From Candidatus Cloacimonadota bacterium (GTDB lineage Bacteria; Muiribacteriota; UBA6191; JACPRK01), in NCBI GenBank assembly GCA_021772705.1, contig JAJFLN010000112.1, forward strand, positions 1 through 43,193: DNA of 43,193 nucleotides, written 5' to 3'. The notes below the pieces were generated by a model, which was given only the letters and a program-made list of their open reading frames with translations, had not been told where the DNA came from and made no database searches. The position numbers and the translations under genes were made by a program. The first letter of the stretch is position 1; each line of letters begins with the position of its first letter. Shown here piece after piece: positions 3,755 through 42,079 of the stretch.

Positions 3755-3794
3755 GGTGAAACCGAGAGGCTGAAAGGCCGGGACCCGATGGACT

Positions 3795-14844: not shown

Positions 14845-14859
14845 AGGAGCGGCACGTTC

Positions 14860-15501: not shown

Positions 15502-15607
15502 TTAAGAATGGTGAAACGGGTTACTGTCCTCCCTCGGTCTCGATGTGGCATGATGCCGACGGGACCTGGATAGAGGCGACGCCGCCCAGAAGAATCACGG
15601 AAAGGCC

Positions 15608-16801: not shown

Positions 16802-19543
16802 TTAGAACCTGAATGAGAGAAGCTCGTCCTTGAGGCGGGCCAAGCGGTTGACCTTCTCTCGACGCTGGAAGCCAATGGCCTCCGCCAGGGCAGGCAGCAT
16901 CACGACGCAGGTCAGGAGACAAACACCGAGGCCCATCAGGATGATCTGTCCCAGACTCGAGAGTCCCCGGTTCTGAGCAATCGACAGGCTTCCGAGGGCC
17001 ACCATGGACGTCATGCAAGACAGCAGGATACTCTTGCCCGTGGATCGTACGGCCCCGACTGTCCCCTCTTCAGGGTGCTGGAGCAAGCGATGAAGAAGGT
17101 AGACACCGTAGGCCATGCCGAGACCCGTCAGAATGGGCAGAGAGACGAAGTTGGCCGGGTTGTAACGAACATCGAGGACCTTCATCATCCCCACTGTGGT
17201 GGCCAGGCTGATCAACAATGGCGTGAGAGCCAGCAGCGTGAGCCGAAGACTTCGAAAGTCGAGGAAGACCAGGATCACCACGGCGGTCAGGCTGTAGATC
17301 GTTGCCTGCTTGAATCCTCGGCGCAGCAGCAGCAGCACTTCGTCCAGGAGAATGGGAACACCTGTGGCCTCCGGGTCGACAGTCTGGGTCTCGGTGATGA
17401 ACTGATTGGCCTGACTCTCGACCCGAACATTCACTCTGGGAGAAACGAACAGAACGTATCGCCCGCTCTTGCCCCGGTAGCGCTTCCGAATTGACGGGGG
17501 GAGCCGGCTGGCGTCGAAAGGCTCGGCACCCAACATGGCCTGCAAGTCGGCGAATCCCTCGCTGAGGTCCTGAAACGCCCGTGCCTGGTACTCCTCGACC
17601 CGAGCCTTCCCCCCCCTGTTCAGTTCCTCCCCCAGGGCCAGGATGGCTGCCCGGGCAGCCAGCTCTGACCGATCTGCCTGAAGGACAACAGTGGCTTCAC
17701 TGGTGATGAGCAGTGGCAGCTTCAGGTTCTTGAGCCTGTCGGCAATCGCCTTGAGGTTGGACAGCAGCTTGTCTCCGTCCAAGTGCGAGGGCTGCTGGAA
17801 GTGAATGTCTTCGACTTCCTTCGCCATCCGTTTGAGAACGATCCGCGTCTCCCCCGGGAACTCGGGCAAGTAATCGCTGTAGCTGTCGATATCACCTATG
17901 GATGGGTGCCCTTGCAGGGCACGCTTCTTTGCTCGAGCTTCCTCGAGGGTAGCTGCCAGGACCATGTTGGTGTCGGGAGTGACCTCGAACTCCTTCTGCA
18001 TGATGGTCTCGTAGATGACCGCCTCTGTGTCCTCCGGCTCTAGGTTCTGGATGTTGTAGTCGAACTCCACTTGAAAGGCCTCGCCGGCCAGGACCAGAGC
18101 CAGGCAGACGAAGACGAGCAACACGACCATGGAGTTGCGAATGGAGAATCGGGCCACCTTCTCGAGAACCACCTCGACCCGGCTCGTACTGCTCGTCCCG
18201 AGGGAAGTGGCGAATCCACCCACGAGCTGGAGCAACACGGGCAGCAGGCAGAGCATGGAGATCATGCAGAACATGAGGCCCACGCCGGAGATCTGACCCA
18301 GCTCTTGAAATCCGGGAAACTCGGTGAGCATCAAGGTGGAGAAGCCTGCGCATGCCGTCAGGCCACCGGTCATCACGCCCGGGCCGGCCCCGCGGATGGC
18401 TCCCTCGACGGCTTCTGAAAGCATCAGCCCTTCCCGGCGTTTCTCGGCAAACTGGCTCACGATATAGATGCCGTAGTCGACACCCAGTCCCAGGAGCATG
18501 GAGACGAAAGCTGTGGTAATCAGGTTCAGATGTCCCGGTGAGATGGAAATGGCGCCGAAAGTCCAGATGATGGCCGAAAGCAGGCTGGCAATGGCGAGCA
18601 GCGGTAATCCGATTCCCCTGAATCCCCAGATGAAGACCAGAGACACTCCCACGAGGGAGAAAGTCGATGTGGTTTGCAGATCCTGGTGGACCGTGTCCCT
18701 CTGGGAGTAGATCAAGGCCGGTTGCCCTGCCAGTCCCACATCGATCCCGGGATACCTGGCCTGCAGCCTCTTGGCCACCTCGCGGCACTTCTCGTAGAAG
18801 GGGATGATGAAATCGAACTCGTCAGTCGAATCCGTGGGATGGATGGCGATGAGGATTCCGTTCTTCCGGGTCGACAGCTTCCAGCCGCCATCGGCGAAAG
18901 GATCGTTGTGGCCTTCGCCTCCGCCGCCGAGCCCGAAGAACTGGGTCCAGGGGATCGGGTCCGCCTCATCCCCCCGCGCTACCTGTGCCAGCCGGATGCA
19001 GACCTCCTCGATGAAGGTGAAGAAGCCCTCGATTTCCTCTGGCTCTGATGGTTCTTCCTTCTGGAGTTCCTTCAGAAAGACGTCAGTGAGACTCACGAAT
19101 CCAGGACTGCTGGCCAGGGTCTGCAAGTTCGGCTTGCCCTCGATGAGACCCTTCTCGAGACCCTTCAGCTTCGACTGAGACAGGAAGTAGAGCTGCTGGT
19201 TCTCGTAGAGCTTGGGGTCCAGGCGATATTCGACCTCGCTGACCAGTTTGGGAAATGCCCTCAGTTCCCGATCGAGTTCGAGGGCGAACTGCTTGGCTTT
19301 ATCAAGCTCCGGTCCTCTTACGATGACGAAAAGATAGGCGTGGATGTCGAAATCGTCGGTGAAGTCGATCCAGCGGCGTACCACTGGGTTGCCCTTGGGC
19401 AACATGTCTATCTGGCTGCTCTTGAGCTCCACTTTGCCTGCGGCGGGCAAGCTGATGACCAAGGCGGCCACTGCGACGAGCAGGATCAGGAAGGGGGCTC
19501 GCTGAACTCCTGCCAGGATTAGATTGAGTAGCCGCTCACGCAT
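16802..19543 (-). CDS. MMPL / RND-superfamily transporter (HpnN-like lipid exporter), paralogue of 9371..12082
   Basis: 913 aa with the same architecture. GVDYGIYIVSQF and GLGMAYGVYLLHRL motifs. Starts 15 nt downstream of the hydrolase stop. Confidence 0.8.
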   Translation of the reverse strand: MRERLLNLILAGVQRAPFLILLVAVAALVISLPAAGKVELKSSQIDMLPKGNPVVRRWIDFTDDFDIHAYLFVIVRGPELDKAKQFALELDRELRAFPKLVSEVEYRLDPKLYENQQLYFLSQSKLKGLEKGLIEGKPNLQTLASSPGFVSLTDVFLKELQKEEPSEPEEIEGFFTFIEEVCIRLAQVARGDEADPIPWTQFFGLGGGGEGHNDPFADGGWKLSTRKNGILIAIHPTDSTDEFDFIIPFYEKCREVAKRLQARYPGIDVGLAGQPALIYSQRDTVHQDLQTTSTFSLVGVSLVFIWGFRGIGLPLLAIASLLSAIIWTFGAISISPGHLNLITTAFVSMLLGLGVDYGIYIVSQFAEKRREGLMLSEAVEGAIRGAGPGVMTGGLTACAGFSTLMLTEFPGFQELGQISGVGLMFCMISMLCLLPVLLQLVGGFATSLGTSSTSRVEVVLEKVARFSIRNSMVVLLVFVCLALVLAGEAFQVEFDYNIQNLEPEDTEAVIYETIMQKEFEVTPDTNMVLAATLEEARAKKRALQGHPSIGDIDSYSDYLPEFPGETRIVLKRMAKEVEDIHFQQPSHLDGDKLLSNLKAIADRLKNLKLPLLITSEATVVLQADRSELAARAAILALGEELNRGGKARVEEYQARAFQDLSEGFADLQAMLGAEPFDASRLPPSIRKRYRGKSGRYVLFVSPRVNVRVESQANQFITETQTVDPEATGVPILLDEVLLLLRRGFKQATIYSLTAVVILVFLDFRSLRLTLLALTPLLISLATTVGMMKVLDVRYNPANFVSLPILTGLGMAYGVYLLHRLLQHPEEGTVGAVRSTGKSILLSCMTSMVALGSLSIAQNRGLSSLGQIILMGLGVCLLTCVVMLPALAEAIGFQRREKVNRLARLKDELLSFRF

Positions 19544-28737: not shown

Positions 28738-29088
28738 TCAGGGAGCCAGGTTGTGAAGGCGATCGGCCATGGGGCCGATGAAGGGGAGTTTCCAGATCTT
28801 ACCCTGGATCACCTGCCGGACGCCGAGAGCCGAGACGATCAGGCAGGCTGCAAGGAGCCCCGAACCGGCATAGAAGCCGATGACGGGCAGGAAGGACACC
28901 ATACCTGCTCCGATTTCGAGAAGGAAAATGACCGTCCCCTGTCTTCCGTGGGACCGGGCGAACTCCGAATCGGTCCGGCTCAAGCTCGGAAGCAGGCAGA
29001 AGACAGGGATGTAGGCGAGGACGGCCAGGAACAACTCTTCCTGGTCCGGCCTCTCCCTGGGCGCGTCATCGGACGCCATTGATGGCAA
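28738..29088 (-). CDS. Small integral membrane protein (DUF4870-like)
   Basis: LAVLAYIPVFCLLPSLSRTDSEFARSHGRQGTVIFLLEI plus two more TM segments. Starts 12 nt downstream of the 795-aa gene. Confidence 0.55.
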   Translation of the reverse strand: MPSMASDDAPRERPDQEELFLAVLAYIPVFCLLPSLSRTDSEFARSHGRQGTVIFLLEIGAGMVSFLPVIGFYAGSGLLAACLIVSALGVRQVIQGKIWKLPFIGPMADRLHNLAP

Positions 29089-29100
29089 GATTGGCAGCGG

Positions 29101-31488
29101 TTACTTGATCTCGCCCATCACCAGCCCGGCCTCGAAGTACTTCTTCTTTGCCAGGTAGTGATTGACCAGTTCCGTTAACTGATAGACCGTGGTGTCACGC
29201 ACGCTCATCCAGATTGCGTAGGTGCTGCCCGGAGTGGACGAGGTGGAGTAGCCCTTGTTCATCCGCTGCAGGTACCAGTGCCACCTGAGCTCCAGATCCT
29301 TCAGGTCAGAATCGAGATTGTCCCGTGCCTTGCTGTTGAGCCTGTCGTCCAGCAGGGTCCGGTCGGCGCGAAGGCTCTGAGAACTCCAGAGGTCATCGAT
29401 GTTACGCAGGACGCGGGTGCTGTCGGTGTTGACGCTCTCCCGGAACTGCTCCAGAGTGATCTCGGGAGGATTCTTCCCCCGGTCAATGTAGAGAGCCTTG
29501 GTGGCTGCAAAGATGGAGGTGCCCTCGACCTGCTTCAGATGCCCGTTGTAACCCTTGAGCTTCCGGGTGATCAGCATGGTGCCCAGGACACTTCTACGAG
29601 CCTTTTCGACCAGCTCGGCCAGACTCGGCTCGTTGTCCAGGTCGATGCCGCGCTCCCGGGCCTGCGCGTAAGTCTTCTCCAGGATGTCGGGCCAGGCCAG
29701 GAAGGTGTTCATGGCGCTCTGGGAGGAGGTCCAGGAGAAGGTCACCTTGCTCAGGTCCCGCAGCGCGGCCTGGCGAGCGTTGTCCGAGAACCAGCCGGCG
29801 TAAAATGACTCGTCCGTCGTCCAGGCCGTGACCATCTTGTGGTCGACTTCCTTGAGCTTCGTGTCGAATACGCGCTCCAGGCTCTCGAGCTTCTCCTTCA
29901 GCTTGGCCATTGCCTCGGGCTGGGCCTTCTCGGCTTCTGTGGGTTCCGGCTCCTCCTGGGGAGTGGGGGGCTCTTCCTCAGACACGGTGGTGGGAGATAC
30001 GCTGGTGGGCGCATCGGGGACGACCAGCTCACTTTCGGGCCTGTTCGTCTCCAGAACCGGTGCTTCAACGGGAGACTCGGCGGGGGCGTTCTTGGCGTAA
30101 ATGGCATCCCGGTCGCCGCCGGCGCGGGAGATGACGTCATCGACGAGCTTGAAGAACTCCTTCAGGGACGCCAGGTGCTTCTGGAAGGCCCGCTCCGCCA
30201 TTTCGCTCTTCTGGGCGCTGCCCTGGTCGGCCAGGAAGCCCCGCTCAGCTGTCAGGTAGGCGGCGTAATCGGCGGTGGAGCTGGTGAGGGCCGAGGAGAG
30301 GGAGGAGATGAGCGCCTTGTCGCCCGTGTTCTCCTCCGCGAGCCTCTTCACTTCGTCCACGAGGCGAGTGTAGGCCTCGCCGGAGATCTTGTCCGTACCG
30401 GCGTTGCCCAAGTAGAGCTCCACGAGCTGTCCGCTGTCCAGGTTGCGGCGCTTTGCTTCGGCTTCGACCTTCTCCAGAGCGCTGGCGATGTCCTCCTCAT
30501 CCAGGGAGGCGTCGTCGCCGGCCTTCTCGATGGCTGCCAGCAGTTCCTGGAAAGCGTCCTTCATCGACGGGTCGAGCCGCGTGGCCTGGTAGAGGCTGTT
30601 CACCTTCTCCTTCAGTGCCGGGTCCTTGATGCGCTCGATGAACTTCTGGACCTCGTTGTCCTCCGTGACCCGCTGGGCCGTGAAGACGTCCTCCACTGCC
30701 TGGCCAATCCAGCTCTCAGGCGACAGGGGATTGACGCCATCCTCGGGCTTCAGCCGTCGTCCCTGGGCGCGTTCGAATACCCGGCTGGTGAAGTCCGGAT
30801 CCAGCTCATCGTCTCGATCGCTGCCGGCCCGGGTCTTCTCACGGATTCCCCTGAGCTGACTTCGCTGCTCGATCAGAGCCCGCCTCTGGGCATCGTAGGC
30901 GAAGATGGTGCGCTTCAGGCTCTCTGCCTCGGAGGCATCCTTCGCTGTCTCCAGGAGGCCCCGGTAGGTGCGAATGTCTGCTTCGAGTTCACGAAGCTCC
31001 AGGTCGATCCGGATCAACTCGTCATCCATCAACTCCGTCTCGCCGGAGTTCGACGTCGCTGCCCGGGGACCGAACTCGTCGTCCCGATCATCAGGGTCAT
31101 TGTTTCTCGGCTCGTCCCTGTCGATCTGGAGGTCCTCCAGGCCGTCGAAGTCAGGCATGCCATCGTTCAGGAGATCCGTCGTGTCAGCGGCGCGAGGCCC
31201 GTCGGTGGGACTCCCCACATCCTCGTTATCATCCTGGAATCGGCGAGTATTCTCGCTGATGAACTTCTCCCACTTGTCCCGCTTGTCCGGGTCCAGGTTG
31301 GGTGGGTTGTCCATGGCTCCATCCCGGGAGCGATGGCACTCCATGCAGTTCGTGGTTCCGACCTGCTGGGCAATTGGCTGGGTAGCGAAAACGGGGCTAG
31401 TGAGGGCAAATGAAGCCAGCAGGACGGCAAGGGTGAGGAACATGAACCGGTGCACGGGAGTTCTCCTCTCGGTTCTTGGGGGTGTCAT
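29101..31488 (-). CDS. Secreted acidic, coiled-coil-rich protein with a single N-terminal CxxCH motif
   Basis: Signal peptide FMFLTLAVLLASFALTSPVFA followed by TNCMECHRS. I saw no other Cys in the protein. GTG 31455 (GAGGAG 7 nt upstream) is a likely alternative start to ATG 31488, which has no SD. Confidence 0.7.
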   Translation of the reverse strand: MTPPRTERRTPVHRFMFLTLAVLLASFALTSPVFATQPIAQQVGTTNCMECHRSRDGAMDNPPNLDPDKRDKWEKFISENTRRFQDDNEDVGSPTDGPRAADTTDLLNDGMPDFDGLEDLQIDRDEPRNNDPDDRDDEFGPRAATSNSGETELMDDELIRIDLELRELEADIRTYRGLLETAKDASEAESLKRTIFAYDAQRRALIEQRSQLRGIREKTRAGSDRDDELDPDFTSRVFERAQGRRLKPEDGVNPLSPESWIGQAVEDVFTAQRVTEDNEVQKFIERIKDPALKEKVNSLYQATRLDPSMKDAFQELLAAIEKAGDDASLDEEDIASALEKVEAEAKRRNLDSGQLVELYLGNAGTDKISGEAYTRLVDEVKRLAEENTGDKALISSLSSALTSSTADYAAYLTAERGFLADQGSAQKSEMAERAFQKHLASLKEFFKLVDDVISRAGGDRDAIYAKNAPAESPVEAPVLETNRPESELVVPDAPTSVSPTTVSEEEPPTPQEEPEPTEAEKAQPEAMAKLKEKLESLERVFDTKLKEVDHKMVTAWTTDESFYAGWFSDNARQAALRDLSKVTFSWTSSQSAMNTFLAWPDILEKTYAQARERGIDLDNEPSLAELVEKARRSVLGTMLITRKLKGYNGHLKQVEGTSIFAATKALYIDRGKNPPEITLEQFRESVNTDSTRVLRNIDDLWSSQSLRADRTLLDDRLNSKARDNLDSDLKDLELRWHWYLQRMNKGYSTSSTPGSTYAIWMSVRDTTVYQLTELVNHYLAKKKYFEAGLVMGEIK

Positions 31489-31511
31489 TCTCGAGATCTA
31501 TCCAATTGGAC

Positions 31512-31537
31512 TACGGGTGGAAGCCTGGAAAGGTTAC
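31512..31537 (-). promoter_or_regulatory. ECF-type promoter candidate (AAC-N17-CGTAGT)
   Basis: Minus strand reads TGGTAACC-TTTCCAGGCTTCCACC-CGTAGTCC. Same bipartite motif as 35218-35244 and 42052-42079. Confidence 0.5.
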
Positions 31538-31621
31538 CAGATTCCATGACGCTAGATTGCGACAAAAGGATAGAAGTATATGCTCCGGGTGGCGGAAGCA
31601 GCCCGACCGGGTCCAAAGGCA

Positions 31622-32587
31622 TCAGAAGGTGTCGCCAGTCCTGTCGGTGCCTGTGAAAAGCCTGGCGGGATCGAAGAATCGATCTTGACGCCGGATCTCG
31701 AGGTACAGAGTCGCTTCAGCGCCGCCCTGACCGGGAGCGACGTGGCCGATGATGGTGTTCGGCTCCACCGTCGCGCCCGTGACGAGGGTGTGGGAGTCCT
31801 TCAAGTTGCCGTACTCGGCCACGAAGGGTCTGCCCCGGGCATCGGTGTAGCGAATCTGAACGACGACCCCGAACTCCCGGCTCCGATGCGCCGAGATGAC
31901 CGTTCCCTGTCCAAAGCTCCCGACGGGCTTGTTGGCCAGGTCGTAAGTCCTCTTGCCCTGGCTATCGACGGCGCTGCCGATCAGGACGCCACCGTCGCCA
32001 TCGAATGCCTGGACAATCCGACCGTGGACCGGGGGGATGTTTCGAATCGGCGCCGGTGAGACCCGGTCGAAGAGCCCCTCGGCGTGGGCGACCCAGACTG
32101 AGTTCTCGGGGTCAGAGTTGTCGCCGATCAGGTTCAGGGCTCGGTAGGTCTCTTCCCTGGAGATCTCGATCATCCGGTTCTGTCGCTCCCTGTCGAGCTC
32201 CAGCTTCGATGCGGCATAATATGTGTAGGCCAGGTAGTACCTCAGCTTGGCCCGGCGGGGCGAGGTTTCCACCAGGCGGCGCAAGGTCGTTGCGGCCTGC
32301 TGGAACTTGCCTGCCTTGATGGCGGCCACCACCTCCGTCAGCTGAGCGTCGCCCTGGGTTGAGGGTTGCTGCTGCCGGTCCGTTTCTCTTTCTGCCGTCT
32401 CGGGGGGAGCTTGCTGCTCCTCCTCCTGTCCTGGGTCCCTCTCGACGACGGAACGCAGATAGCTGCTCCGGCGAATCAGATCGCCAAAGCCCGGATCGTC
32501 ATCTCCACTGCCGGCGGCGCCAGCGGCGGAAGTCAGGCAGATGACGGTGAGCGCCAGAGGCAGCAAAAGACGGGGCCTGAGTGACAC
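31622..32587 (-). CDS. Secreted LytM/M23-domain protein with degenerate catalytic motifs
   Basis: GTG 32587 lies 7 nt after the upstream stop. Signal peptide SLRPRLLLPLALTVICLTSAAGA. The C-terminal M23 fold reads FVAEYGNL...IIGHVAPGQGGAEATLYLEIR where active enzymes have xxHL...GxSTGPHLHFEI. Confidence 0.7.
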   Translation of the reverse strand: MSLRPRLLLPLALTVICLTSAAGAAGSGDDDPGFGDLIRRSSYLRSVVERDPGQEEEQQAPPETAERETDRQQQPSTQGDAQLTEVVAAIKAGKFQQAATTLRRLVETSPRRAKLRYYLAYTYYAASKLELDRERQNRMIEISREETYRALNLIGDNSDPENSVWVAHAEGLFDRVSPAPIRNIPPVHGRIVQAFDGDGGVLIGSAVDSQGKRTYDLANKPVGSFGQGTVISAHRSREFGVVVQIRYTDARGRPFVAEYGNLKDSHTLVTGATVEPNTIIGHVAPGQGGAEATLYLEIRRQDRFFDPARLFTGTDRTGDTF

Positions 32588-32594
32588 CGGCGAC

Positions 32595-33677
32595 TCACTC
32601 CTCGGCTGGAAGGTGGGAAGGCAAGTTGAGGCCGCCGGTTTGGTACTCCGGCGTTCCCACCAGGTCGTAGCTCTTGACCCCGCCGCCGACTTCCTTCGTG
32701 GCCCGGACTCGGAACATGTCCAGTTCGATCTCCCGGCGAGTCCGCTCGGACTCCGAGAGGCCCATTTCGAGGAACTCCTCGTAGTCGGACTCGAGCTTCT
32801 GAACCGTCTCTCTGGGCTGCCGGACTTGAACAATGGGAGGAGAATTAGCCACAGCAGCGGCGCTGGTGGCTTCCCTTCCGTTCTCATCGGTGGCTTCATC
32901 CTCGGCTTCGGGGATGTCGAGACCCAGGCGGCGCATCTGCTCCTCGATCATATCGATGTTCAGTTCCAGGGGCTTCAGGTTTCCATTCTCGTCAGTAACG
33001 AAACCGAGACCGAAGATCTTCTCACCGTCCTTGATGGCCTGCCGGACCTTGTTCAGCTCGTTGGCCACGGCCTGGATGAAAGCCTCTTCGAGCTTGCGGG
33101 CTTCCGTCTCGTACTCTTCCGGGACAGTCATGGCGTTGGGAAGAATCGGCTTTCCGAGTTCGTCCTGCTTGTTCATGATCTCCAGGAGCTTGTCGAGGGT
33201 CTCCACATCGGGCATGTAGAAGTTCTTGTTTTCCAGGTCGATGTCTTCCGAGAAGATGTGAGAGCGGGAGACGTTGCCGCTGGCATCGGCCAGGGGCTCC
33301 GGGGCTCCCGGCATCCCCCTGTTCCAGTAGGTGTGACGCCAGCCCATGGGCATGGGGCCCATTATGTCGTCAGAGATTGACGGGAACTGGCGGAAGCTCT
33401 CCCGGTTTCGCTGGCTCGTGGCGGGATCCACCATCATCTCGATGAGGGCGTCCTGGAACGTTCGAAAGGCATTCCACCGGCTGAACTCCAGGTAGCTGGA
33501 GTCGTTGGCCTCCGGATCATCGTAGTGCTTCCGGAACACATCGACCATGGACCGGTCTCCCGCGTCGGTTCGCTCGAAGGGCACCAGTTCCCCTGCGAAG
33601 ACCGTCGTCGTCACCGCCACAGTGGCCAGAAAGAGCCAAAGAGCGCAAAAGGCGACCGGGTGGGCACTCGCTCTCAT
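32595..33677 (-). CDS. Secreted hypothetical protein
   Basis: GGAGG 8 nt upstream of ATG 33677. Signal peptide AFCALWLFLATVAVTTTVFAGE. No recognisable domain. Confidence 0.65.
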   Translation of the reverse strand: MRASAHPVAFCALWLFLATVAVTTTVFAGELVPFERTDAGDRSMVDVFRKHYDDPEANDSSYLEFSRWNAFRTFQDALIEMMVDPATSQRNRESFRQFPSISDDIMGPMPMGWRHTYWNRGMPGAPEPLADASGNVSRSHIFSEDIDLENKNFYMPDVETLDKLLEIMNKQDELGKPILPNAMTVPEEYETEARKLEEAFIQAVANELNKVRQAIKDGEKIFGLGFVTDENGNLKPLELNIDMIEEQMRRLGLDIPEAEDEATDENGREATSAAAVANSPPIVQVRQPRETVQKLESDYEEFLEMGLSESERTRREIELDMFRVRATKEVGGGVKSYDLVGTPEYQTGGLNLPSHLPAEE

Positions 33678-33752
33678 GTGGGATACCTCCGTTTGCCAGC
33701 GTTACCAGCGTGATGGTCCGTCTGTGGCGGCATATGACGCCACGGCCTGGGT

Positions 33753-35153
33753 TCAGTCCTCGAGCTTCTGGACCGTGCCCTGACCCTCGCGGCGATTGGT
33801 CAACTCGTCAGAGAACTCGTCGAAGGGATCGTCGTAGTCCAGAGAGGTGCGGGTCTCGCCCGTGAGGGGGTCGTAGATCTTCTTTCCGCCCTTGGGGACT
33901 CGCTCCTGATCCTTGTCGTTGGACTGCCAGTACTGCTGCAGGTTCCACTCTTGAAGGGCTCGGAGATACCAGTCGGGAACGTACTCGACGGAGCCATCGG
34001 TGTCTTCGAAGTACTCGCTCTCGGTGTCGATTCCACCTGAACCGGCCAGCCGGTCATCGGACTCCGTCTCCGTCGCGTCATCCTGGTTCTCACGGACGGG
34101 AGGTTTGCCGCCATCCTGATCAGCTCGGGGCTTGTCGCCCTTGCCGGTGTCCCCTGCTTCGGGGTTGTTCTTCTCGCCCTTCAGCTTGTCCCTCCGGGAC
34201 AGCTCGGCCTTGATGCGGGCTGCTGCTGACCGAGCCTTGTCGCGAAGCGGGTTGTTGGGATCGTTGGCCTGTCGCTCCAACAGGGGCAGGACAGCCCGAA
34301 GGCCCATCTCTCGCTCGCCCTCGAGTTGTGCGGCCGTCATGGTGTAGAAGCTGCGATCCGAGTCCTGCTGGCTCTCTTCTTCATCGCTTCGCGAATCGTC
34401 GCTGCCATCGCCCTTACCGTCGCCGTCCTCACCGTCCGGTGCGTCGTCGTCATCTTCCTGGGGGATCGGCTTGCCGTCCTCGTCCAGGAGGGTCTCGTCG
34501 GCTCCGGGAGGCTCGTCCTCCAGATCCTGTCCCTGTTGCAGACCCTCGAGAATTTCGTCACCGACGCCGTTCAGGTTGGCGTCGCTGGCGGTCTCGAGCT
34601 GACGGACGGCCTCGGCGTCCCGCAGAACCTCATCGGAGAGGTTGTCGCCGGTCTTGGACTGCTTGATCACGTCCTGGTTCTCGGCGACGTCGGAGAGCAC
34701 GACGTGCATCAGCTGATCTCGCTTGGCTGCTGAGACCGGCTCTCCCGGCGATGCGGGCATGAGTTCGAGGATTCGATCGATGACCGCCTTCGGGGGCATG
34801 TAGATCTTCTCCCCCGGGTAGATCAGATCCTCGTTCTCGATGACCCGGCCGTCATGCTTATGGCCGGCGAGAGCGTTGTGATAGACCTGAACCGCCAGAG
34901 CGTTGCGCCACATCTGATGCTGCTCGTTCCGGGACAGGTCGCTGATGCCCTTCGACTGCGTGTCGGGAGGCATGTAGCGGATCGACAACCCGGACAGGGT
35001 TCCGTCCCGCAGGCTCTGGGTGGCGTCGCCCACCGTGACCGCCTCGGGTCCGGGCTCGCCGGACGCCGTACCTGCGACTGCTGTTCCCGTCGCCAGAATG
35101 AGGCAGATCGCTGCCAGCACCAGTCCTGTCTTTGCCAAGTTAATCGCTCTCAT
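33753..35153 (-). CDS. Secreted, highly acidic low-complexity protein
   Basis: ATG 35153 with AGGTGG 8 nt upstream (the track starts at GTG 35165). Signal peptide LVLAAICLILATGTAVAGTASG. D/E-rich central region (QEDDDDAPDGEDGDGKGDGSDDSRSDEEE). Confidence 0.65.
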   Translation of the reverse strand: MRAINLAKTGLVLAAICLILATGTAVAGTASGEPGPEAVTVGDATQSLRDGTLSGLSIRYMPPDTQSKGISDLSRNEQHQMWRNALAVQVYHNALAGHKHDGRVIENEDLIYPGEKIYMPPKAVIDRILELMPASPGEPVSAAKRDQLMHVVLSDVAENQDVIKQSKTGDNLSDEVLRDAEAVRQLETASDANLNGVGDEILEGLQQGQDLEDEPPGADETLLDEDGKPIPQEDDDDAPDGEDGDGKGDGSDDSRSDEEESQQDSDRSFYTMTAAQLEGEREMGLRAVLPLLERQANDPNNPLRDKARSAAARIKAELSRRDKLKGEKNNPEAGDTGKGDKPRADQDGGKPPVRENQDDATETESDDRLAGSGGIDTESEYFEDTDGSVEYVPDWYLRALQEWNLQQYWQSNDKDQERVPKGGKKIYDPLTGETRTSLDYDDPFDEFSDELTNRREGQGTVQKLED

Positions 35154-35217
35154 CAGGTTCACCACCTGTTTCCCATGATCTTTCTGGACGTAGACCTGAT
35201 CCTCTACATCCTCTACC

Positions 35218-35244
35218 TACGAGGCAGAGACCGCATTGTTGCGG
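35218..35244 (-). promoter_or_regulatory. ECF-type promoter candidate (AAC-N16-CGTAGG)
   Basis: Minus strand reads TCCGCAACA-ATGCGGTCTCTGCCT-CGTAGGTAG, about 65 nt upstream of ATG 35153, in a locally lower-GC spacer. A sigma70-like TTGACG-N17-TAGACT also lies at 35258-35286. Confidence 0.5.
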
Positions 35245-35338
35245 AGAGGTCCATCCAAGTCTAGAAGTACCTCAGGTGGCCGTCAACTAGACATGACGAC
35301 GGCGCTGGCCCGAAGGGTAGATTTCCCGAAGACTGAAT

Positions 35339-35965
35339 CTACTTCGGGTTCGGTTTCCAGAGGTCATCCCGCACCTCCGGAGCCCGCTTGCTCACCAGGG
35401 TCCTGAAGGTGTGGATCGACTTGCCTGGTTTACCTTCCGCCATGGCCTTCGCCTGTTCCTGATTGGCAAACTCCAGGCGGATCTCATAGAAACCCAGGAC
35501 GTCAATCTCCCGGGTGAAGTTGCCGGTGGTGACCGAGATCCGGGGATTCCGGGCGAAGACCTGGAAGGAGGTGATGAAACCGACGCTCCTGCCCGAGAGG
35601 CCGAAGCTCTGCTCCCGATCCTCGTCGCCTCCCTTGGCAGTTCGTTTCACGTAACGCTCGGTCTCGAAGAACTCGTAGGTCACGGTCTCGGTGGAAGGGG
35701 GGGCGTCGGCGTCCTTCGAGTTGGCCTCCCGGGTGATGGTGACAGTGGAGCCGAGCTGGATTGAATCGCCCCGGCCGGCGCTTCGGATGTCGCGGCGCAC
35801 GTTGTCCAGGAGCAGCGTCGCCTGGCGAAGGAAGTCGAGGGTCGCCTCGGCTCGGCCCACGTTTCTCTGAACCCCGGTGAACATCTGGAGAAGGATCAGG
35901 ATGATGATCGAGGCCACGGCCATGACGAACATGGTCTCGATGAGGGTGAAGGCCCGTCGGCTCAT
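35339..35965 (-). CDS. Prepilin-type N-terminal motif protein (minor pseudopilin-like)
   Basis: MSRRA|FTLIETMFVMAVASIIILILL has Phe+1/Glu+5 and Ala at -1. ATGA overlap with the upstream gene and GGAGG SD. The track ORF extends to 36070. Confidence 0.7.
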   Translation of the reverse strand: MSRRAFTLIETMFVMAVASIIILILLQMFTGVQRNVGRAEATLDFLRQATLLLDNVRRDIRSAGRGDSIQLGSTVTITREANSKDADAPPSTETVTYEFFETERYVKRTAKGGDEDREQSFGLSGRSVGFITSFQVFARNPRISVTTGNFTREIDVLGFYEIRLEFANQEQAKAMAEGKPGKSIHTFRTLVSKRAPEVRDDLWKPNPK

Positions 35966-36573
35966 CCTCCACCTCCCAGGGACCGGTAGGGATCTCCCAG
36001 GACGGTTCGAAGCTCCACATGCTGTTTCTTCTGAACCTCGCCGGCGTTGCTGGATCGCCTGACGGTCCATTCGACTCGGATGATGACGGTCAGGGTCTTC
36101 TCCCGCCGCACGCTGCCCGTGGGGGCGCTGGGATCCGCCGGGGCCCCACCGCCAGAGTCTCGGATGGCGAAGTAGCGAATGTAGTAGTCCTCCATCGGCG
36201 GCACGATGGGGTCGTCGCTGGCAAAGAAGGCCTTCTCGAAGGAATCCCAGGCCTTGAGCTGATCATTGGTGGGGGCGTCCGAGGAAATGGGCGCGAAGAG
36301 AACCTCGTCCAGGGACTGAGGGACGCCCCACTTGCCCTTTCCCAGCTGCTGCATGATGGGTGGAAACTGGCTGACGGCGTCGAATCCGACTGCCCGGATC
36401 GCCTCGATCAGGTTGGAGGCATGGTTGGTGGCCTGAACCTGGCTGACGGTCAACCGCGCCGTCTGGGTGCTGCCGGACATGACCCAGAATATGGGAATGA
36501 TCCCTGCGAAGAGGATGATGATCCCGATGAAGAGCTCCAGGAAGCTGAAGCCTTGATTTCGGCGCTGCTGCAT
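35962..36573 (-). CDS. Prepilin-type N-terminal motif protein (minor pseudopilin-like)
   Basis: MQQRRNQG|FSFLELFIGIIILFAGIIPIF has Gly-1, Phe+1 and Glu+5. TGATG overlap with the upstream 1106-aa gene. Confidence 0.7.
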   Translation of the reverse strand: MQQRRNQGFSFLELFIGIIILFAGIIPIFWVMSGSTQTARLTVSQVQATNHASNLIEAIRAVGFDAVSQFPPIMQQLGKGKWGVPQSLDEVLFAPISSDAPTNDQLKAWDSFEKAFFASDDPIVPPMEDYYIRYFAIRDSGGGAPADPSAPTGSVRREKTLTVIIRVEWTVRRSSNAGEVQKKQHVELRTVLGDPYRSLGGGG

Positions 36574-39500
36574 CAGATCTTGCCGGAGCTGTACTTCCGA
36601 ACCCGGGGTTCGATGTTGGTGATGAAGGAGTTTAGGTTCTTGAACGCCGGGTTGTAATCGATGACCCGCTTGCCAGAACGAGTGAAGCTCGACTTATCCC
36701 AGCCGCCAGCGACCACGCTGCCCTGGATGTACAGGGAGTCCGTGGGGGCGCCGGACAGGGAGATAGTCTTGTGGGCGATGAGGCCGGCCTGCACGATCTT
36801 TGCCTCCCCGCTGATGGTGATCTTGTCCGCCACGAGCCAGACCGTTCCCTTGGCCTTCAGGTCGTTGACGATGGAGATCTCTCCGGGAACGACAATTGCA
36901 CCGGACCCCTGGATGGTGATGGGACCCTCCGTGCCCAGCTCCACCTTGCTGCTGGCCACGCCCAAGATGGTGTTGAGGAACAGGAGGTTGTCTCCCGAAG
37001 GGTCCAGGACCAGGAACCGGCGGCTCGCTTCGTCCCAGGTCATCAGACCCTCGGCATCGCCGTCACCTCCGGTCCCGTCGGCCCAGAAGGAGCGGCCGCC
37101 GAAGGCCTCCTTCGTGTCGGGATCGCTGGGAGCCGAGACACCCTTGCCGTATTCATCCATGAAGAAATAGGCTTCCTCCAGGCGCTTCGTGCCCTTTCGT
37201 TTCTTGTAGATCTCCTTCAGGACGGCGTCGTTGAGCGGCATGTCGTTGTTCTCGCCATACTTCTCCGGATCCAGATAGTCATTCTCCCCTTTCTCGATGT
37301 AGCCGATGCCGTCGGTGATCTCGGCGGGGAACTCGTTCATCAGGAGTTCCTTCCGCTCCTTCACGTCCTTGGAGAAGATCTCCCGCAGATCAGTGCACAT
37401 GAACCGCAGGGAGTAGTTGTAAGGCAGGACCCGGGCTGGGTTGGTCATCAAGGGGGTGAAGTAGAGCTTGAAGAAGTCTTCCTTCGTGTTGGCGTTCTTC
37501 ACGGGCCAGTTGGTGACCCACTGCTTCTCGAAGTAGTCTCTGAAGTTCTCCTTCGCCGATCCGGGCCGGTTGTCCCAGGGGTCGGGCAGAGAGAAGGGGA
37601 AGAACTTCGGAGCGTTGGCTCCCTTGGCCTCCCAGAACTTGCGCTTCTTCTCGTCCTTGATCTGAGAGGGCTGGATCTCCTTCACCTCCACCCGGCTTCG
37701 GATGTCGTTCTCATCGTCCACCAGAGCCTTCCACCGGGTCTTGGCGCCCAGCAGGGCCGCCTTCATGGCCTCCTCCGACTGGCCCGTGGGACCTGACTGA
37801 CCCTCGGCCTGGGCTGCATCCCGGACCTTCTGAATCGCCTCGTCCACGGGACCGAGACCGGAGACGCTGTAGCTGAAGCAACGAAGCAGCTCTTCGAAAT
37901 AGGGCGTGACGCCCTTGTAGAGATAGCCGTCACCGGCCTCGTACTTACCAGAGCCCCAGAAATTCTTCTTGCCCAGGAGTTGAAAGAGAGGGCTCATTCC
38001 GACAGCGAACTGAGGGGCGCCGTCGTTCTGGTCCGTCTTGGTCGCGTTCTCCGTCTCCGGAGGAGGGGCCACGCTCTTCAGGAAGAGCCGCTTGGCGTAC
38101 TGGACCCGGCTCTTCTCCCAGAGCTTGGCAAGACCGGGCATGAGCCGGCCGAAGAGGGCCGCGCCTGAGAGAGGCAGATAGGTTCCATTGGCGGACTTGT
38201 TCGCCACGTTGGGGTCCATGTTCCACCGGACCCGGGCATCCCAGACCCAGATAGGCCGTTTCTCCTTGTCCTCCGTCGGGTCCTGGCTCCGGTCCATCAG
38301 GTCCTTGTATCCCTCGAAGAACTCCACTGGCCCGGCTTGGACCTCGAACTTGCGATCCGTGCTCGGTTCCTCCTGACCCTTCGGGTCCGACTTGCGCCGC
38401 TGCTTGTATCCTGACAGAGACAGGCAGCGCCGGTAGACATTGCCGAGGACCACCGTGGGGCTGGCGAAGTTGCCCTGCAGATACTGGCCCGGTTGCTGGG
38501 GGTTCCGGATACCCAGGCTGGGTCCGTTTCCGTTGGAACCGAAGAGGTGAAGGCTGGAGCTGACGATGGTTTGGGTCCCCCCTTCGCCATCGCCGCGAGC
38601 GAAACCGAATCGCTGGTAGGATTTGGTTCCCCACTCCGTAGCGTAACCGTAGTCCTTCCTGACGACGTAGTAGAGCGGCAATGCGTTGGAGTCCGCCAGG
38701 TTCTTGCTGCCTTGCTCGATGTTGTCCAGCTCCAGAGCACGCCTGAGGGCTCCCTTGAGCCATTCCCGGACGTCCTTCACCATCTTGCCGAAGAAGTTGA
38801 CACTCCGCTGGAACCAGCCCTTCTCGCCGGGCCCTTCCGGCGCGTCCTTGCCCGGTGTCTGGACTTCCGACTTCTCGATGAAGTTGGAGAACTCCGTGGA
38901 CCAGACCTTGTAGAAGTCCGTCGTTGCGCCCCGATAGAGGTGGAACGTCTCCGAGTAGGGCGCCTGGTCCGAGATGTCCCCGGCCATCAAGTTCAGGTGG
39001 GCCTTCTCCTCGCCCCCCAGGTAGATGTAGCCGATCTTGTTCTCGAACTGGCCCTTCAAGGTGGCTCCCTGAAAGTCAGCCTGGGGGCCGAAGAAGAAGC
39101 CATCGCCGCTCTTGACGAACAGGACGCCGCCGGTGGCGCTTTTGCCGGTCAAGGGGTTCTGGGCCCAGTTGAAGTTGCCCCGGTTCTGGAAGCTCTCTGG
39201 TTCCTCCTTCTGGGTGATGGCCTTCTTCACATAGAGGGAGAAGTGGCGGAAGTAGGGTGGAATCGTCCGGGCTCGTTTGAATTCGTATTCCATGGAGATG
39301 CTGCGAGCGGGAATCCTGAAGGTGTCGACCTTGCGGTACTGACCGGTGGTGGAATCCTCCCGCAGACCTTGCTGGAGTACGATGTTGTCCTTCAGCTTGA
39401 GCAGGATCTCCACCCGTCCGTGGACCTCGGGAGAGCCCACCTTCTGTAGGGCCGTGGGCAGGGTGGCGCTTCCCTCGTCGGCGGGACGGATGGTGTTGAA

Positions 39501-39893
39501 GCCGGCCATCTTCTTCAGACCCTTCAATCGGGCCGTGACCTCCAGGCTGTCGAGGAAGCTGTCGGCCATGGTGTTGGGGCTGCCATCGGCGCCGGCTTCG
39601 CCCAGGATGCCGGAGGAGGACAACTCCCCCTTCACGTCTCCCGTGATGTCGACCCACTCTCCGGGATCTTCGTCCAGGAGGGCCGTGAGGGTCGATTCCC
39701 GCTGAACCACGGCTCTGGAGATGACGTCGAGGCCGTCGAAGATGGCCAGCACCTTCTCGTTGTAATAGGTGTGGTGAAGCATCCTGGACGTGGACTGGCT
39801 GATCCAGTTGTAGGTGATCACCACGATACCAAGAACGACCATGACGACGATCGCCATGAGCGTGACGGAACCGGGACGAGAGCGCTTGAGCAT
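36573..39893 (-). CDS. Large (1106 aa) membrane-anchored protein with GspK/PilX-like N-terminus
   Basis: The N-terminus MLKRSRPGSVTLMAIVVMVVLGIVVITY resembles GspK/PilX-type anchors (no Glu+5). The body is unassigned. The C-terminus has beta-helix-like repeats (ITIQGSGAIVVPGEISIV, KITISGEAKIVQAGLIAHKTISLSG). Confidence 0.6.
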   Translation of the reverse strand: MLKRSRPGSVTLMAIVVMVVLGIVVITYNWISQSTSRMLHHTYYNEKVLAIFDGLDVISRAVVQRESTLTALLDEDPGEWVDITGDVKGELSSSGILGEAGADGSPNTMADSFLDSLEVTARLKGLKKMAGFNTIRPADEGSATLPTALQKVGSPEVHGRVEILLKLKDNIVLQQGLREDSTTGQYRKVDTFRIPARSISMEYEFKRARTIPPYFRHFSLYVKKAITQKEEPESFQNRGNFNWAQNPLTGKSATGGVLFVKSGDGFFFGPQADFQGATLKGQFENKIGYIYLGGEEKAHLNLMAGDISDQAPYSETFHLYRGATTDFYKVWSTEFSNFIEKSEVQTPGKDAPEGPGEKGWFQRSVNFFGKMVKDVREWLKGALRRALELDNIEQGSKNLADSNALPLYYVVRKDYGYATEWGTKSYQRFGFARGDGEGGTQTIVSSSLHLFGSNGNGPSLGIRNPQQPGQYLQGNFASPTVVLGNVYRRCLSLSGYKQRRKSDPKGQEEPSTDRKFEVQAGPVEFFEGYKDLMDRSQDPTEDKEKRPIWVWDARVRWNMDPNVANKSANGTYLPLSGAALFGRLMPGLAKLWEKSRVQYAKRLFLKSVAPPPETENATKTDQNDGAPQFAVGMSPLFQLLGKKNFWGSGKYEAGDGYLYKGVTPYFEELLRCFSYSVSGLGPVDEAIQKVRDAAQAEGQSGPTGQSEEAMKAALLGAKTRWKALVDDENDIRSRVEVKEIQPSQIKDEKKRKFWEAKGANAPKFFPFSLPDPWDNRPGSAKENFRDYFEKQWVTNWPVKNANTKEDFFKLYFTPLMTNPARVLPYNYSLRFMCTDLREIFSKDVKERKELLMNEFPAEITDGIGYIEKGENDYLDPEKYGENNDMPLNDAVLKEIYKKRKGTKRLEEAYFFMDEYGKGVSAPSDPDTKEAFGGRSFWADGTGGDGDAEGLMTWDEASRRFLVLDPSGDNLLFLNTILGVASSKVELGTEGPITIQGSGAIVVPGEISIVNDLKAKGTVWLVADKITISGEAKIVQAGLIAHKTISLSGAPTDSLYIQGSVVAGGWDKSSFTRSGKRVIDYNPAFKNLNSFITNIEPRVRKYSSGKI

Positions 39894-39924
39894 GGATGAG
39901 GGGAGGCGGAATGGCCTCCTCTAA

Positions 39925-39953
39925 AGCGTAACGGATGGATACCTGGCGGTCAA
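39925..39953 (-). promoter_or_regulatory. Weak sigma70-like promoter candidate for the pseudopilin operon
   Basis: Minus strand reads TTGACC-N17-TACGCT, between the terminator hairpin and ATG 39893. Confidence 0.25.
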
Positions 39954-39969
39954 CGGGGGAGGGCCAACT

Positions 39970-40007
39970 TCCCCAAAGCAGAAACGACGGCCCGAAGGCC
40001 GCCGTTT
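39970..40007 (-). terminator. Rho-independent terminator/attenuator after the anti-sigma gene
   Basis: Minus strand reads AAACGGCGGCC-TTCG-GGCCGTCGTTT: 11-bp stem with one G-U pair, a UUCG loop, then TCTGCTTTGG. It starts about 20 nt after stop 40028. Confidence 0.6.
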
Positions 40008-40027
40008 GTGAGTTCTGGATGGATGCG

Positions 40028-41395
40028 CTACCTGTGTTCCACGCCGTTGTAATCCGGGTCGGTCCGGTCGATGCCGGCATCAATGACGGGGCCGTCGTCG
40101 ACTGGCTGAGAAGTGCGGCCAGCGCCGAAGGTCGTCGTCGGAGCGTCGGAGAGAGGGGCGGGGACGATTGCGGAGCGAGCGGCCTCTTCCTGGACCCGCT
40201 GGAGCAGGGCCGAGTTGGTGGGGAGGCCCCACTTGAGGAAGTCGTTCTCCGTGATGGTCGCGAGACGGGCGAGCTGCATATGCTGGACGTCTGTCTGGTA
40301 GCCCTCCTTCACCAGGACCGTGGAGATTTCTCGCTTCGTGTCGGGGTCGATACTGGCGACCTCGACCTTGCTCTCGAAGACCTGGACCTTGGTCTTGACC
40401 GTCCGGGTCGCGTTGAGGGAGTCGAGGAGCATGTTGACCTGTACGGCGAGGCTGACGGGTGTGGCGTGCATCGGATAGGCCAGCATCGGCATCAGGCCGT
40501 TCATTCGGGAATCTGTCAGGTTTCGGGTGTACTCGTCGAGGAACTTATCGACGACCTTGCTCTCGGTCAGATCACCGTCATAGTAGGCGGCGATGCGCTC
40601 GGGGTAATGGACTTCGGCGGAGTATCGGGTTCCTCGGACGGAGGCCACTGCGTTGGGCGTCTCGGCCTGGAAGCGGCTGCCGATCTTGTCGACTCGAATC
40701 CAGGTGTCTCCGTGATAGACGCGGACCGCATTGGTCAGGATCTGGACGAGAGACCTGGGGCGAAGCTTCAAGGTGGTCTTGTCCTGGGTGTACTCGATCC
40801 GTGCCGTGGCGCCCGGGAGGGTACGAATCTTGTCGCCGTATCCAACCTCATCGGCATCGGAGATGTGAAGCCACTGTGAGGAGTTGACCCTCTGGACCTG
40901 GACATCACCGCTGGCGATACGGACGTGAATCCGCTGGCTCGTGCGCCGTTTGGCCAGGCTGGGCTCCACCAGAGGAGGAGTCTTGGCGATGGTGGTCAGG
41001 GCGCTGTCCTGCTGAGCGTGCATCTCGGGCATCGGCAGGGAGCCGGGTTGCCCCGCCTGGAAGATGAAGATCCCGGCGGTGATGACCACGACGGCGGCTG
41101 CGGAGGCTAGGCTCCAGAACCAAGCGCCAGTGGACTGAGGCTGCAGGTCCGGGATGAGCGGCATCGGCCGGACCGGGTGATTCACCTCGGTCATGACTTC
41201 GCTCGTGATTCGCCCAGGAGGGACGAGATCTTCGAGCTGCTCGAGCCCTTCGACTACCTTGTTGTACAACTTGAAATCCAATCTACACCTGGCGCAGACA
41301 TCGATGTGGTTCATCAGGACGGCGGTCTGACCGCTGTCCAGCGCCTTGTCCAGGTATAGCTGGAGCAAATCCTCGTAATTGTCACACGAAGACAT
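40028..41395 (-). CDS. Anti-sigma factor: zinc-binding (ZAS, zf-HC2) N-domain, TM segment, FecR-like periplasmic domain
   Basis: HIDVCARC fits HxxxCxxC. TM WFWSLASAAAVVVITAGIFIF. FecR-like GDVQVQRVNSSQW...GDKIRTLPGATARIEY...VRGTRYSAEV. ATG 41395 sits behind AGGTGA (the track uses GTG 41404, overlapping the sigma stop). Confidence 0.8.
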   Translation of the reverse strand: MSSCDNYEDLLQLYLDKALDSGQTAVLMNHIDVCARCRLDFKLYNKVVEGLEQLEDLVPPGRITSEVMTEVNHPVRPMPLIPDLQPQSTGAWFWSLASAAAVVVITAGIFIFQAGQPGSLPMPEMHAQQDSALTTIAKTPPLVEPSLAKRRTSQRIHVRIASGDVQVQRVNSSQWLHISDADEVGYGDKIRTLPGATARIEYTQDKTTLKLRPRSLVQILTNAVRVYHGDTWIRVDKIGSRFQAETPNAVASVRGTRYSAEVHYPERIAAYYDGDLTESKVVDKFLDEYTRNLTDSRMNGLMPMLAYPMHATPVSLAVQVNMLLDSLNATRTVKTKVQVFESKVEVASIDPDTKREISTVLVKEGYQTDVQHMQLARLATITENDFLKWGLPTNSALLQRVQEEAARSAIVPAPLSDAPTTTFGAGRTSQPVDDGPVIDAGIDRTDPDYNGVEHR

Positions 41396-41400
41396 CTGGA

Positions 41401-41997
41401 TCACCTCGTCTCGGACCCTTGCAAACGACCCTCTAGATAGCCTTTAAGAAGTTTCCGCGCTCTGTGAATCCTGGCTTTGATCGTCCCCATGGGGAGGTTC
41501 AACATCTGGGACATCTCTTTGTAGGAGAGGTTCTGGATGTGGCGCAGCACCACTACGGCACGGTAGTCGATGGGCAAGAGTTCGATACCTTCCCGGATGA
41601 CCGCCTGCAGCTCCGCTGCTTCTAGCCGGTCCTCCAGCTCCGTCTCGGTGTTGCGCTGAGACGTCGCGTGGGAGAGGATGGCACTCTCAGCGCCGCTGGA
41701 GAGGATGACTTCCAGTGAGGCTGTGTTCTGAGAGCGCGTCCGATGGTAATCGATACAGAGGTTACTGACTGTCTTGAGGAGCCAGTTGGAGAACTTGTAC
41801 TTCGGGTCATAGCGATCCAGAGACTTGTAGATCTTGATGAAGGCATCCTGAGCGATGTCCTTCGCCTTCTCTGGGTTGCTTGTTAGACGATATGCCATGT
41901 TGTAGACCCGACGGTTGTACTTGTCGACCAGCTGGGCAAAGACCTCTTTCTTGCCCTTCAGGCAAAGCTTGATCAGCTTGTAATCTTCGTTTTCCAC
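41401..41997 (-). CDS. ECF-type RNA polymerase sigma-70 family factor
   Basis: Region 2 DIAQDAFIKIYKSLDRYDPKYKFSNWLLKTVSNLCIDYHR. Region 4 LSYKEMSQMLNLPMGTIKARIHRARKLLK. GTG start at 41997. Confidence 0.85.
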   Translation of the reverse strand: MENEDYKLIKLCLKGKKEVFAQLVDKYNRRVYNMAYRLTSNPEKAKDIAQDAFIKIYKSLDRYDPKYKFSNWLLKTVSNLCIDYHRTRSQNTASLEVILSSGAESAILSHATSQRNTETELEDRLEAAELQAVIREGIELLPIDYRAVVVLRHIQNLSYKEMSQMLNLPMGTIKARIHRARKLLKGYLEGRLQGSETR

Positions 41998-42051
41998 AAA
42001 GGCCTTTGCGAGCCTTTCCGGACCATCAAGCTGCCTGACTTCATCAGCTAC

Positions 42052-42079
42052 TACGTGGAGGGGTCCAGAAGGTTGCAGC
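42052..42079 (-). promoter_or_regulatory. ECF-type (autoregulatory) promoter candidate (AAC-N16-CGTAGT)
   Basis: Minus strand reads GCTGCAACC-TTCTGGACCCCTCCA-CGTAGTAG. The -10 element lies about 55 nt upstream of the sigma start. Confidence 0.55.

Follow-up and report, generated by a model that had tools for sequence, protein, structure and literature searches.

Results and Discussion

Three intergenic sites with a shared promoter motif

The 43,193-nt stretch of contig JAJFLN010000112.1 analysed here (the window, taken at its full length) contains three short intergenic sites on the minus strand that are probably promoters of the SigW/ECF01 type, with a TG[CA]AAC −35 box and a CGTAGT −10 box 16-17 nt apart, and that would be read by the extracytoplasmic function (ECF) sigma factor encoded nearby at 41997-41401. 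Site 1 precedes the operon of this sigma factor and its anti-sigma factor, site 2 an operon for two secreted acidic proteins and a LytM-like peptidase, and site 3 an operon for a large secreted protein and a small membrane protein. A local regulon of this composition had been proposed in the preliminary description of the window, and it is supported both by the conservation of all three sites in related genomes and by their ranking as the three best matches to a weight matrix derived from other genomes.

A script scan of both strands of the whole window for AAC-N16/17-CGTAG returned four matches, three of them intergenic and on the coding strand of the genes that follow. These are the sites that had been read by eye on the minus strand, and all three strings were found as quoted and where they had been placed. 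The fourth match (33814-33837, plus strand) lies inside the gene initially read as encoding 470 aa, antisense to it. Dinucleotide-preserving shuffles give an expectation of 0.31 matches for the 16-nt spacing and 0.51 for the 17-nt spacing, against three and one observed, or four against ~0.8 (0.82) for both spacings together. Because intergenic DNA makes up only ~6% of the window, this corresponds to ~0.03 coding-strand intergenic matches expected by chance, where three are seen. Within the window, the motif is more frequent than chance would give. The core of the motif, AAC and CGTAG, was correctly described from the outset, but the consensus of the family is longer, TG[AC]AAC ... CGTAGT, and sites 2 and 3 deviate from it in flanking bases.

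The objection that the motif was chosen after inspection of the window is removed by a weight matrix built from 18 sites, none of which comes from the window, because such a matrix uses only sites of other genomes. When both strands of the window were scanned with it, site 1 ranked first (29.4 bits), site 3 second (18.3 bits) and site 2 third (9.9 bits); the next scores, 9.1 and 8.4 bits, both fall within genes. Among 200 first-order Markov random windows, each comprising 86 kb of strand, scores of 18.3 bits or more were reached in 0.5% and scores of 9.9 bits or more in 40%, the latter with a mean of 0.54 per window. Sites 1 and 3 are significant by score alone, and site 2 becomes significant only once its location and conservation are counted.

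Conservation of the predicted autoregulatory promoter

Site 1 (42050-42077, minus strand), a predicted ECF promoter through which the sigma/anti-sigma operon would be autoregulated, consists of TGCAAC (42077-42072, with AAC at 42074-42072) as the −35 box and CGTAGT (42055-42050, with CGTAG at 42055-42051) as the −10 box. The spacer from AAC to CGT is 16 nt long, and 53 nt separate the end of CGTAG from the GTG start codon of the sigma gene at 41997. Loci with sigma orthologues were collected from genomes and metagenomes, and those with sufficient upstream DNA were counted (n = 25); related loci carry working labels here (L001, L002, L003, L124 and so on), L124 and L004 being parts of the same metagenome-assembled genome (MAG). 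TG[AC]AAC-N16/17-CGTAGT stands upstream of the sigma gene in 24 of the 25 loci, whose proteins are 52-93% identical to the sigma factor of the window and whose GC content ranges from 30 to 66%, at a distance of 28-62 nt from the aligned sigma N-terminus. In an alignment of 18 of these sequences with a mean column identity of 42%, the only invariant or near-invariant columns are those of TG.AAC and CGTAGT.

The signal extends to more distant homologues with 36-41% identity (Eisenbacteria, Zixiibacteriota, Ignavibacteria), among which TG[AC]AAC-N16/17-CGTA was found in 15 of 21. The consensus derived from these comparisons is TGAAAC[ACT]TTT ... CGTAGT, with TGCAAC as the −35 box in the Wallbacteria clade, and the variant follows the clade: GCAAC occurs at site 1 and mostly at sites 2 and 3, GAAAC in the distant clade. 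Two boxes at a set distance, with a free spacer between them and a sigma/anti-sigma operon behind them, are what an autoregulated ECF promoter usually looks like, and published prediction pipelines build on this pattern (PMC7776599). The earlier suggestion that this sigma gene, as is typical of ECF sigma genes, is autoregulated gains support from its orthologues and distant homologues alike.

Conservation alone cannot tell which factor binds, and the boxes might in principle be bound by a regulatory protein, or belong to an RNA element, instead of forming a promoter. This explanation appears highly improbable: the boxes are neither palindromic nor repeated in the manner of typical operators, they keep a spacing of 16-17 nt around a variable intervening sequence, and the motif matches exactly a consensus established by experiment for ECF promoters (PMC5758882). 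No conserved RNA structure was found in the sigma leader downstream of site 1, where the fold reaches only −2.9 kcal/mol and shows no covariation.

A further feature of the sigma upstream regions concerns the start of translation. In L006, L007, L010, L011, L013, L091, L092 and L093 an ATG in frame with the sigma open reading frame (ORF) follows CGTAGT after 5-6 nt. Such an in-frame ATG occurs in about 8 of 12 distant lineages and is missing in L008, L012, L014 and L090; its position right after the −10 box suggests a leaderless sigma mRNA in most of the distant orthologues. A block like GAGCTCGAAGG is kept even in the four loci where the ATG is missing.

A SigW-like sigma factor with a membrane-anchored anti-sigma factor

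The sigma gene (41401-41997, minus strand) encodes a SigW-like protein of 198 aa with Pfam matches to Sigma70_r2 (residues 23-89, 4e-19) and Sigma70_r4_2 (residues 134-184, 3e-15). Only regions 2 and 4 are present, as expected of an ECF sigma factor, and the general ECF model TIGR02937 gives 120.7 bits (cut-off 42.9). The best-matching NCBIfam model is SigW (166.7 bits), and the best match in the PDB is Bacillus subtilis SigW (5wuq, E = 4.8e-33). The nearest related loci come from groundwater Wallbacteria MAGs, with sigma proteins 92-93% identical to that of the window. Family searches of the window proteins revealed no second sigma gene in the 43 kb.

The anti-sigma gene (40028-41404, minus strand; 458 aa) is co-oriented with the sigma gene, overlaps it by 4 nt and follows it in every orthologous locus long enough to tell. 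Its product begins with a zf-HC2 domain (residues 7-41, Pfam 4e-8) containing the sequence HIDVCARC (H-x3-C-x2-C), continues with a single predicted transmembrane segment in the hydrophobic stretch around residues 94-115, and carries a FecR-like domain (residues 191-264, Pfam 1.6e-6) in its extracytoplasmic part.

The likeness to SigW of B. subtilis, invoked in the preliminary description as an example of this promoter type, proves apt: SigW is the closest model and structure for the protein, and the published sigma-W consensus is the same motif, with −35 tGAAACnTTTt and a −10 CGTA that confers selective recognition by sigma-W, a member of group ECF01 (Gaballa et al., PMC5758882). The ECF01 label is that of the original ECF classification. 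Both systems share the promoter consensus with 16-17 nt from AAC to CGT, to which two more fixed bases are added here, an autoregulatory promoter before the sigma/anti-sigma operon, and an anti-sigma factor that starts with a zf-HC2 domain (H-x3-C-x2-C) and has one transmembrane segment. There are also differences. The sigma factor of the window scores below the SigW equivalog cut-offs (166.7 against 209 bits and 149.6 against 243.1 bits; NCBIfam NF007223 / TIGR02948) and is SigW-like rather than a SigW orthologue, and it comes from a MAG of Candidatus Wallbacteria instead of from a Firmicute. On its extracytoplasmic side the anti-sigma factor is FecR-like, the −10 box is the longer, invariant CGTAGT, the −35 box is TGCAAC in the Wallbacteria clade, and the operons predicted as targets encode secreted acidic proteins restricted to the lineage and an M23 peptidase, for which annotated families offer no recognisable counterpart.

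The Pfam FecR domain of the anti-sigma factor also recalls the FecI/FecR cell-surface signalling systems. Assignment to such a system was rejected: the sigma factor is not FecI-like, its best models being of the SigW, RpoE and SigE types, the N-terminus of the anti-sigma factor is of the zf-HC2 type, and Pfam and NCBIfam scans detected no TonB-dependent receptor domain among the proteins of the cluster.

Prediction of ECF regulons from autoregulatory promoters and phylogenetic footprinting has been published before (Todor et al. 2020, PMC7776599; Casas-Pastor et al. 2021, PMC7826278). The same logic is followed here, moving from a motif conserved upstream of sigma orthologues to its occurrences before nearby target genes. 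A search of the literature collection used here returned no paper linking Wallbacteria with sigma factors.

Sites 2 and 3 in related genomes

Site 2 (35216-35243, minus strand), the predicted ECF promoter of an operon for a 466-aa protein, a 360-aa protein and an M23 peptidase, combines a CGCAAC −35 box (35243-35238, with AAC at 35240-35238) with a CGTAGG −10 box (35221-35216, with CGTAG at 35221-35217) across a 16-nt spacer. Its CGTAG ends 51 nt before GTG 35165 and 63 nt before ATG 35153. When the window is aligned with L003 and L124, every base of CGCAACAAT and CGTAG is the same in all three genomes, while none of the 13 positions that separate them is; besides the boxes, only the ribosome-binding site and the start region are conserved here. 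For site 2, weak by score, it is this conservation of the predicted boxes that settles the case.

Site 3 (31510-31538, minus strand), the predicted ECF promoter of an operon for a 784-aa and a 116-aa protein, has GGTAAC as its −35 box (31538-31533, with AAC at 31535-31533) and CGTAGT as its −10 box (31515-31510, with CGTAG at 31515-31511), separated by a 17-nt spacer; the end of CGTAG is 55 nt from GTG 31455 and 22 nt from ATG 31488. The corresponding place in L124, upstream of a homologue of 828 aa, reads CTGCAACC...CCGTAGT and yields the top matrix score of that 11-kb locus. No motif is present in L003 in the DNA beyond the M23 gene, and this locus ends before any homologue of the site 3 gene initially read as encoding 795 aa.

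In the closest relatives, the motif is confined to these places. The four closest loci, 45 kb in total, contain six strict matches, three before sigma genes, two before homologues of the first gene behind site 2 and one before a homologue of the first gene behind site 3, and none elsewhere. Two further strict matches in L086, both within coding sequence, were taken as background. In the other Wallbacteria assemblies the boxes of sites 2 and 3 are kept across diverged spacers, in front of genes whose proteins are only 36-38% identical to those of the window.

Several observations weigh against reading the three sites as promoters of the local sigma factor. The −35 box of site 3 is GGTAAC and not TGCAAC, and the footprint of this site comes from only two genomes. 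The footprint of site 2 comes from only three, it lacks two bases of the family consensus, the T of TG and the T expected after CGTAG, and its 9.9 bits are a score that random windows contain about once in two. Moreover, a sigma-70-like promoter, TTGACG-N17-TAGACT (35258-35286, minus strand; 9/12 matches in a promoter scan), lies 14 nt upstream of the CGCAACAAT block with hexamers and spacing kept in L003, and it could be the main promoter of the site 2 operon. Among the sigma orthologues, L005 (8362-9500; 70% identity, GC 70%) alone lacks the motif before its sigma gene; a weak GAAAC-N16-CGTAGT is present instead at 9404-9434, between its sigma and anti-sigma genes. Finally, the predicted sigma dependence is drawn from 43 kb of genome, and a paralogous ECF sigma factor of the same specificity may exist.

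These points could be accommodated if only site 1 worked, in autoregulation, and sites 2 and 3 were chance or near-chance look-alikes in front of secreted-protein operons served by housekeeping promoters. The score of site 2, barely above the two intragenic ones and attained in two of every five random windows, fits such an explanation, as do the conserved sigma-70-like element just upstream of it and the deviation of both sites from the extended consensus TG[AC]AAC/CGTAGT. It is nevertheless unlikely, given the score of site 3, reached by so few random windows, the preservation of both sites in other genomes as bipartite boxes around diverged spacers, and the fact that all six strict matches in the closest relatives fall at these promoter positions. 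In L124, moreover, the spacer is shorter and has kept the ECF boxes but not the sigma-70-like element. The site 2 operon of the window may possess tandem promoters, one basal and one inducible.

A different possibility accepts all three sites as genuine ECF promoters and assigns site 2, site 3 or both to another ECF sigma factor, whose gene would lie in another part of the genome and whose specificity would overlap, much as among B. subtilis sigma-W, -X, -M and -V. AAC/CGT promoters are known to be shared by several ECF sigma factors (PMC5758882), the flanking bases of sites 2 and 3 are unlike those of site 1, and the absence of a second sigma gene applies to the 43 kb examined. We regard this as quite unlikely in view of the location of the sites less than 11 kb from the sigma gene, with the same genes clustered in L003 and in L124 (the MAG of L004). 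The −10 CGTA is also the variant tied to selective sigma-W recognition (PMC5758882), and the clade-specific GCAAC variant of the −35 box is common to the sites. Recognition of all three sites by the local sigma factor is accordingly retained as the preferred, though predicted, assignment.

Genes of the predicted regulon

The first gene behind site 2 (33753-35153, minus strand) encodes a secreted acidic protein with a signal peptide. The promoter site upstream of it was rightly noted in the preliminary description, but the start codon is more likely ATG 35153 (466 aa) than GTG 35165 (470 aa), the Shine-Dalgarno (SD) sequence AGGTGGTGA and ATG 35153 being conserved in L003 and L124. No Pfam or NCBIfam model matches the protein. 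It is followed by the gene of a secreted 360-aa protein (32595-33677, minus strand), likewise with a signal peptide and no Pfam or NCBIfam family match, for which one homologue was returned, in L003, with 45% identity. The last gene of the operon (31622-32587, minus strand) encodes a secreted, LytM-like protein with a signal peptide and with TPR_16 (1e-5) and Peptidase_M23 (2e-7) domains in Pfam. Its probable start is GTG 32587 and not ATG 32899, with which a 305-nt overlap with the 360-aa gene vanishes.

The product of the first gene of the site 3 operon (29101-31455, minus strand), 784 aa long and read at first as an ORF of 795 aa, is a secreted acidic protein that is largely helical. The choice of GTG 31455 over ATG 31488, argued for earlier from the position of site 3, is borne out by comparison with L124, in which the SD sequence GAGAGGAG and the GTG are conserved and ATG 31488 is not; GAGAGGAG-N6/7-GTG ... 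GGTTCATG forms a block conserved between the window and L124. ATG 31488 has no SD sequence and lies only 22 nt past the −10 box. A single homologue of the 784-aa protein was returned, the 828-aa protein P0106 of L124, with 36% identity (36-40%). Just past the signal peptide, the 784-aa protein has a single CxxCH sequence (CMECH, residues 37-41; 31345-31333, minus strand), of which C37, C40 and H41 are invariant between it and P0106; this may be a c-type haem attachment site. The second and last gene of the site 3 unit (28738-29088, minus strand) encodes a small, 116-aa membrane protein whose hydropathy profile shows three hydrophobic segments, and its counterpart likewise follows the 828-aa gene in L124. 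Downstream of it lies recG, the 820-aa ORF of the window being RecG.

Sequence searches of the PDB with the predicted regulon proteins returned no relatives, and AlphaFold2 models of these proteins, with predicted local distance difference test (pLDDT) values of 50 for the 360-aa protein and 41, were of too low confidence to use.

The pseudopilin-like operon as a separate transcription unit

Between the sigma/anti-sigma operon and site 2 lies an operon of 1106-aa, 203-aa and 243-aa ORFs, upstream of which no ECF motif had been seen by eye. This is borne out, and the operon appears to be served by a conserved sigma-70-like promoter of its own, located past a terminator. The anti-sigma gene is followed by a terminator-like hairpin (39975-40007, minus strand) with an 11-bp stem, a UUCG loop and the U-rich sequence CUGCUUU behind it; its fold of −27.9 kcal/mol (z = −4.0) was matched in stability by none of 200 shuffles, and a simple terminator scan did not list it. 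Downstream of the hairpin, a predicted sigma-70-like promoter, TTGACC-N17-TACGCT (39925-39953, minus strand), occurs in exactly this form before the homologues of the 1106-aa gene in L002 and L124 and as the variant TTGACC...TAGTCT in L003. Because of this terminator and this conserved promoter, the operon is considered a separate transcription unit, which explains why the ECF motif is missing before it.

The two small proteins of this operon (35962-36573 and 35339-36070, minus strand) are pseudopilin-like, with weak matches to PilV and to 'Verru_Chthon cassette protein C' (TIGR02599). For the ORF at 35339-36070, Met36 is the probable start, giving 208 aa as called in L001. Together with the 1106-aa protein, the two small pseudopilin-like proteins may represent a distant analogue of the Verru_Chthon cassette.

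Proposed regulation and its wider context

The arrangement described above suggests a regulatory circuit of a familiar kind. At rest, the sigma factor would be held at the membrane by the anti-sigma factor through its ZAS-type N-terminal domain, with one transmembrane segment and a periplasmic FecR-like domain, until an envelope signal released it. Once free, the sigma factor would transcribe its own bicistronic operon from site 1 up to the hairpin terminator, resulting in positive autoregulation. It would also switch on the site 2 operon, for two secreted acidic proteins and the secreted TPR-M23 peptidase, and the site 3 operon, for the secreted 784-aa CxxCH protein and the small membrane protein. 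Transcription is predicted to start a few nucleotides past CGTAGT, leaving leaders of roughly 45-55 nt, and the 1106/203/243 operon lying between these units would stay outside the regulon, served by its own sigma-70-like promoter.

It is tempting, if speculative and on balance rather unlikely, to see in these targets a lineage-restricted extracellular module and possibly an undescribed envelope or surface system of Wallbacteria, placed under the control of the sigma factor and switched on by an envelope signal that the periplasmic FecR-like domain senses. Its parts may be the two secreted, highly acidic proteins, the TPR-M23 peptidase, the 784-aa CxxCH protein, possibly haem-binding, and the small membrane protein.

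A more immediate outcome is a regulatory map of the 13-kb island between the transaldolase gene and recG, which separates the operons likely to be induced by stress through the ECF sigma factor from those that are not, and in which three start codons have been corrected. Specificity of the SigW type (TGAAAC/CGTA) appears to be conserved far beyond Firmicutes, in Wallbacteria, in loci labelled Cloacimonadota or UBP17, in Eisenbacteria and in Zixiibacteriota, and this conservation helps the prediction of regulons in metagenome-assembled genomes. The concept of ECF sigma factors is left unchanged: the promoters are ordinary ones, their value lies in annotation, and a specialist would find no surprise in them.

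Motif copies were also observed in a distant lineage, Cloacimonadota-labelled or unclassified, where strong examples stand before conserved genes less than 10 kb from the sigma gene (162-192 and 4521-4551 in L011, 4773-4804 in L012, 683-714 and 4744-4775 in L092, 19719-19750 in L009). Behind the copies in L011, L012 and L092 lie genes for secreted proteins (561 and 627 aa) and for membrane-anchored proteins of ~205 aa, none of them with a Pfam match, and one distant copy precedes the gene of an SH3_3-domain protein. Genes preceded by the motif in this lineage are probably regulon members there, and local regulons seem to be general in this sigma family.

Other features of the window

Two observations concern the remainder of the window. 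An ORF of 728 aa (1688-3874, minus strand) joins a membrane domain of the urea-transporter (UT) family to a C-terminal Peptidase_M23 domain, an unusual pairing. On the plus strand, genes for a VWA-FHA protein, a double-zinc-ribbon-FHA protein and a PP2C phosphatase are clustered at 12838-16510 in what looks like a Ser/Thr phospho-signalling module, flanked on either side by MMPL transporter genes (9371-12082 and 16802-19543).

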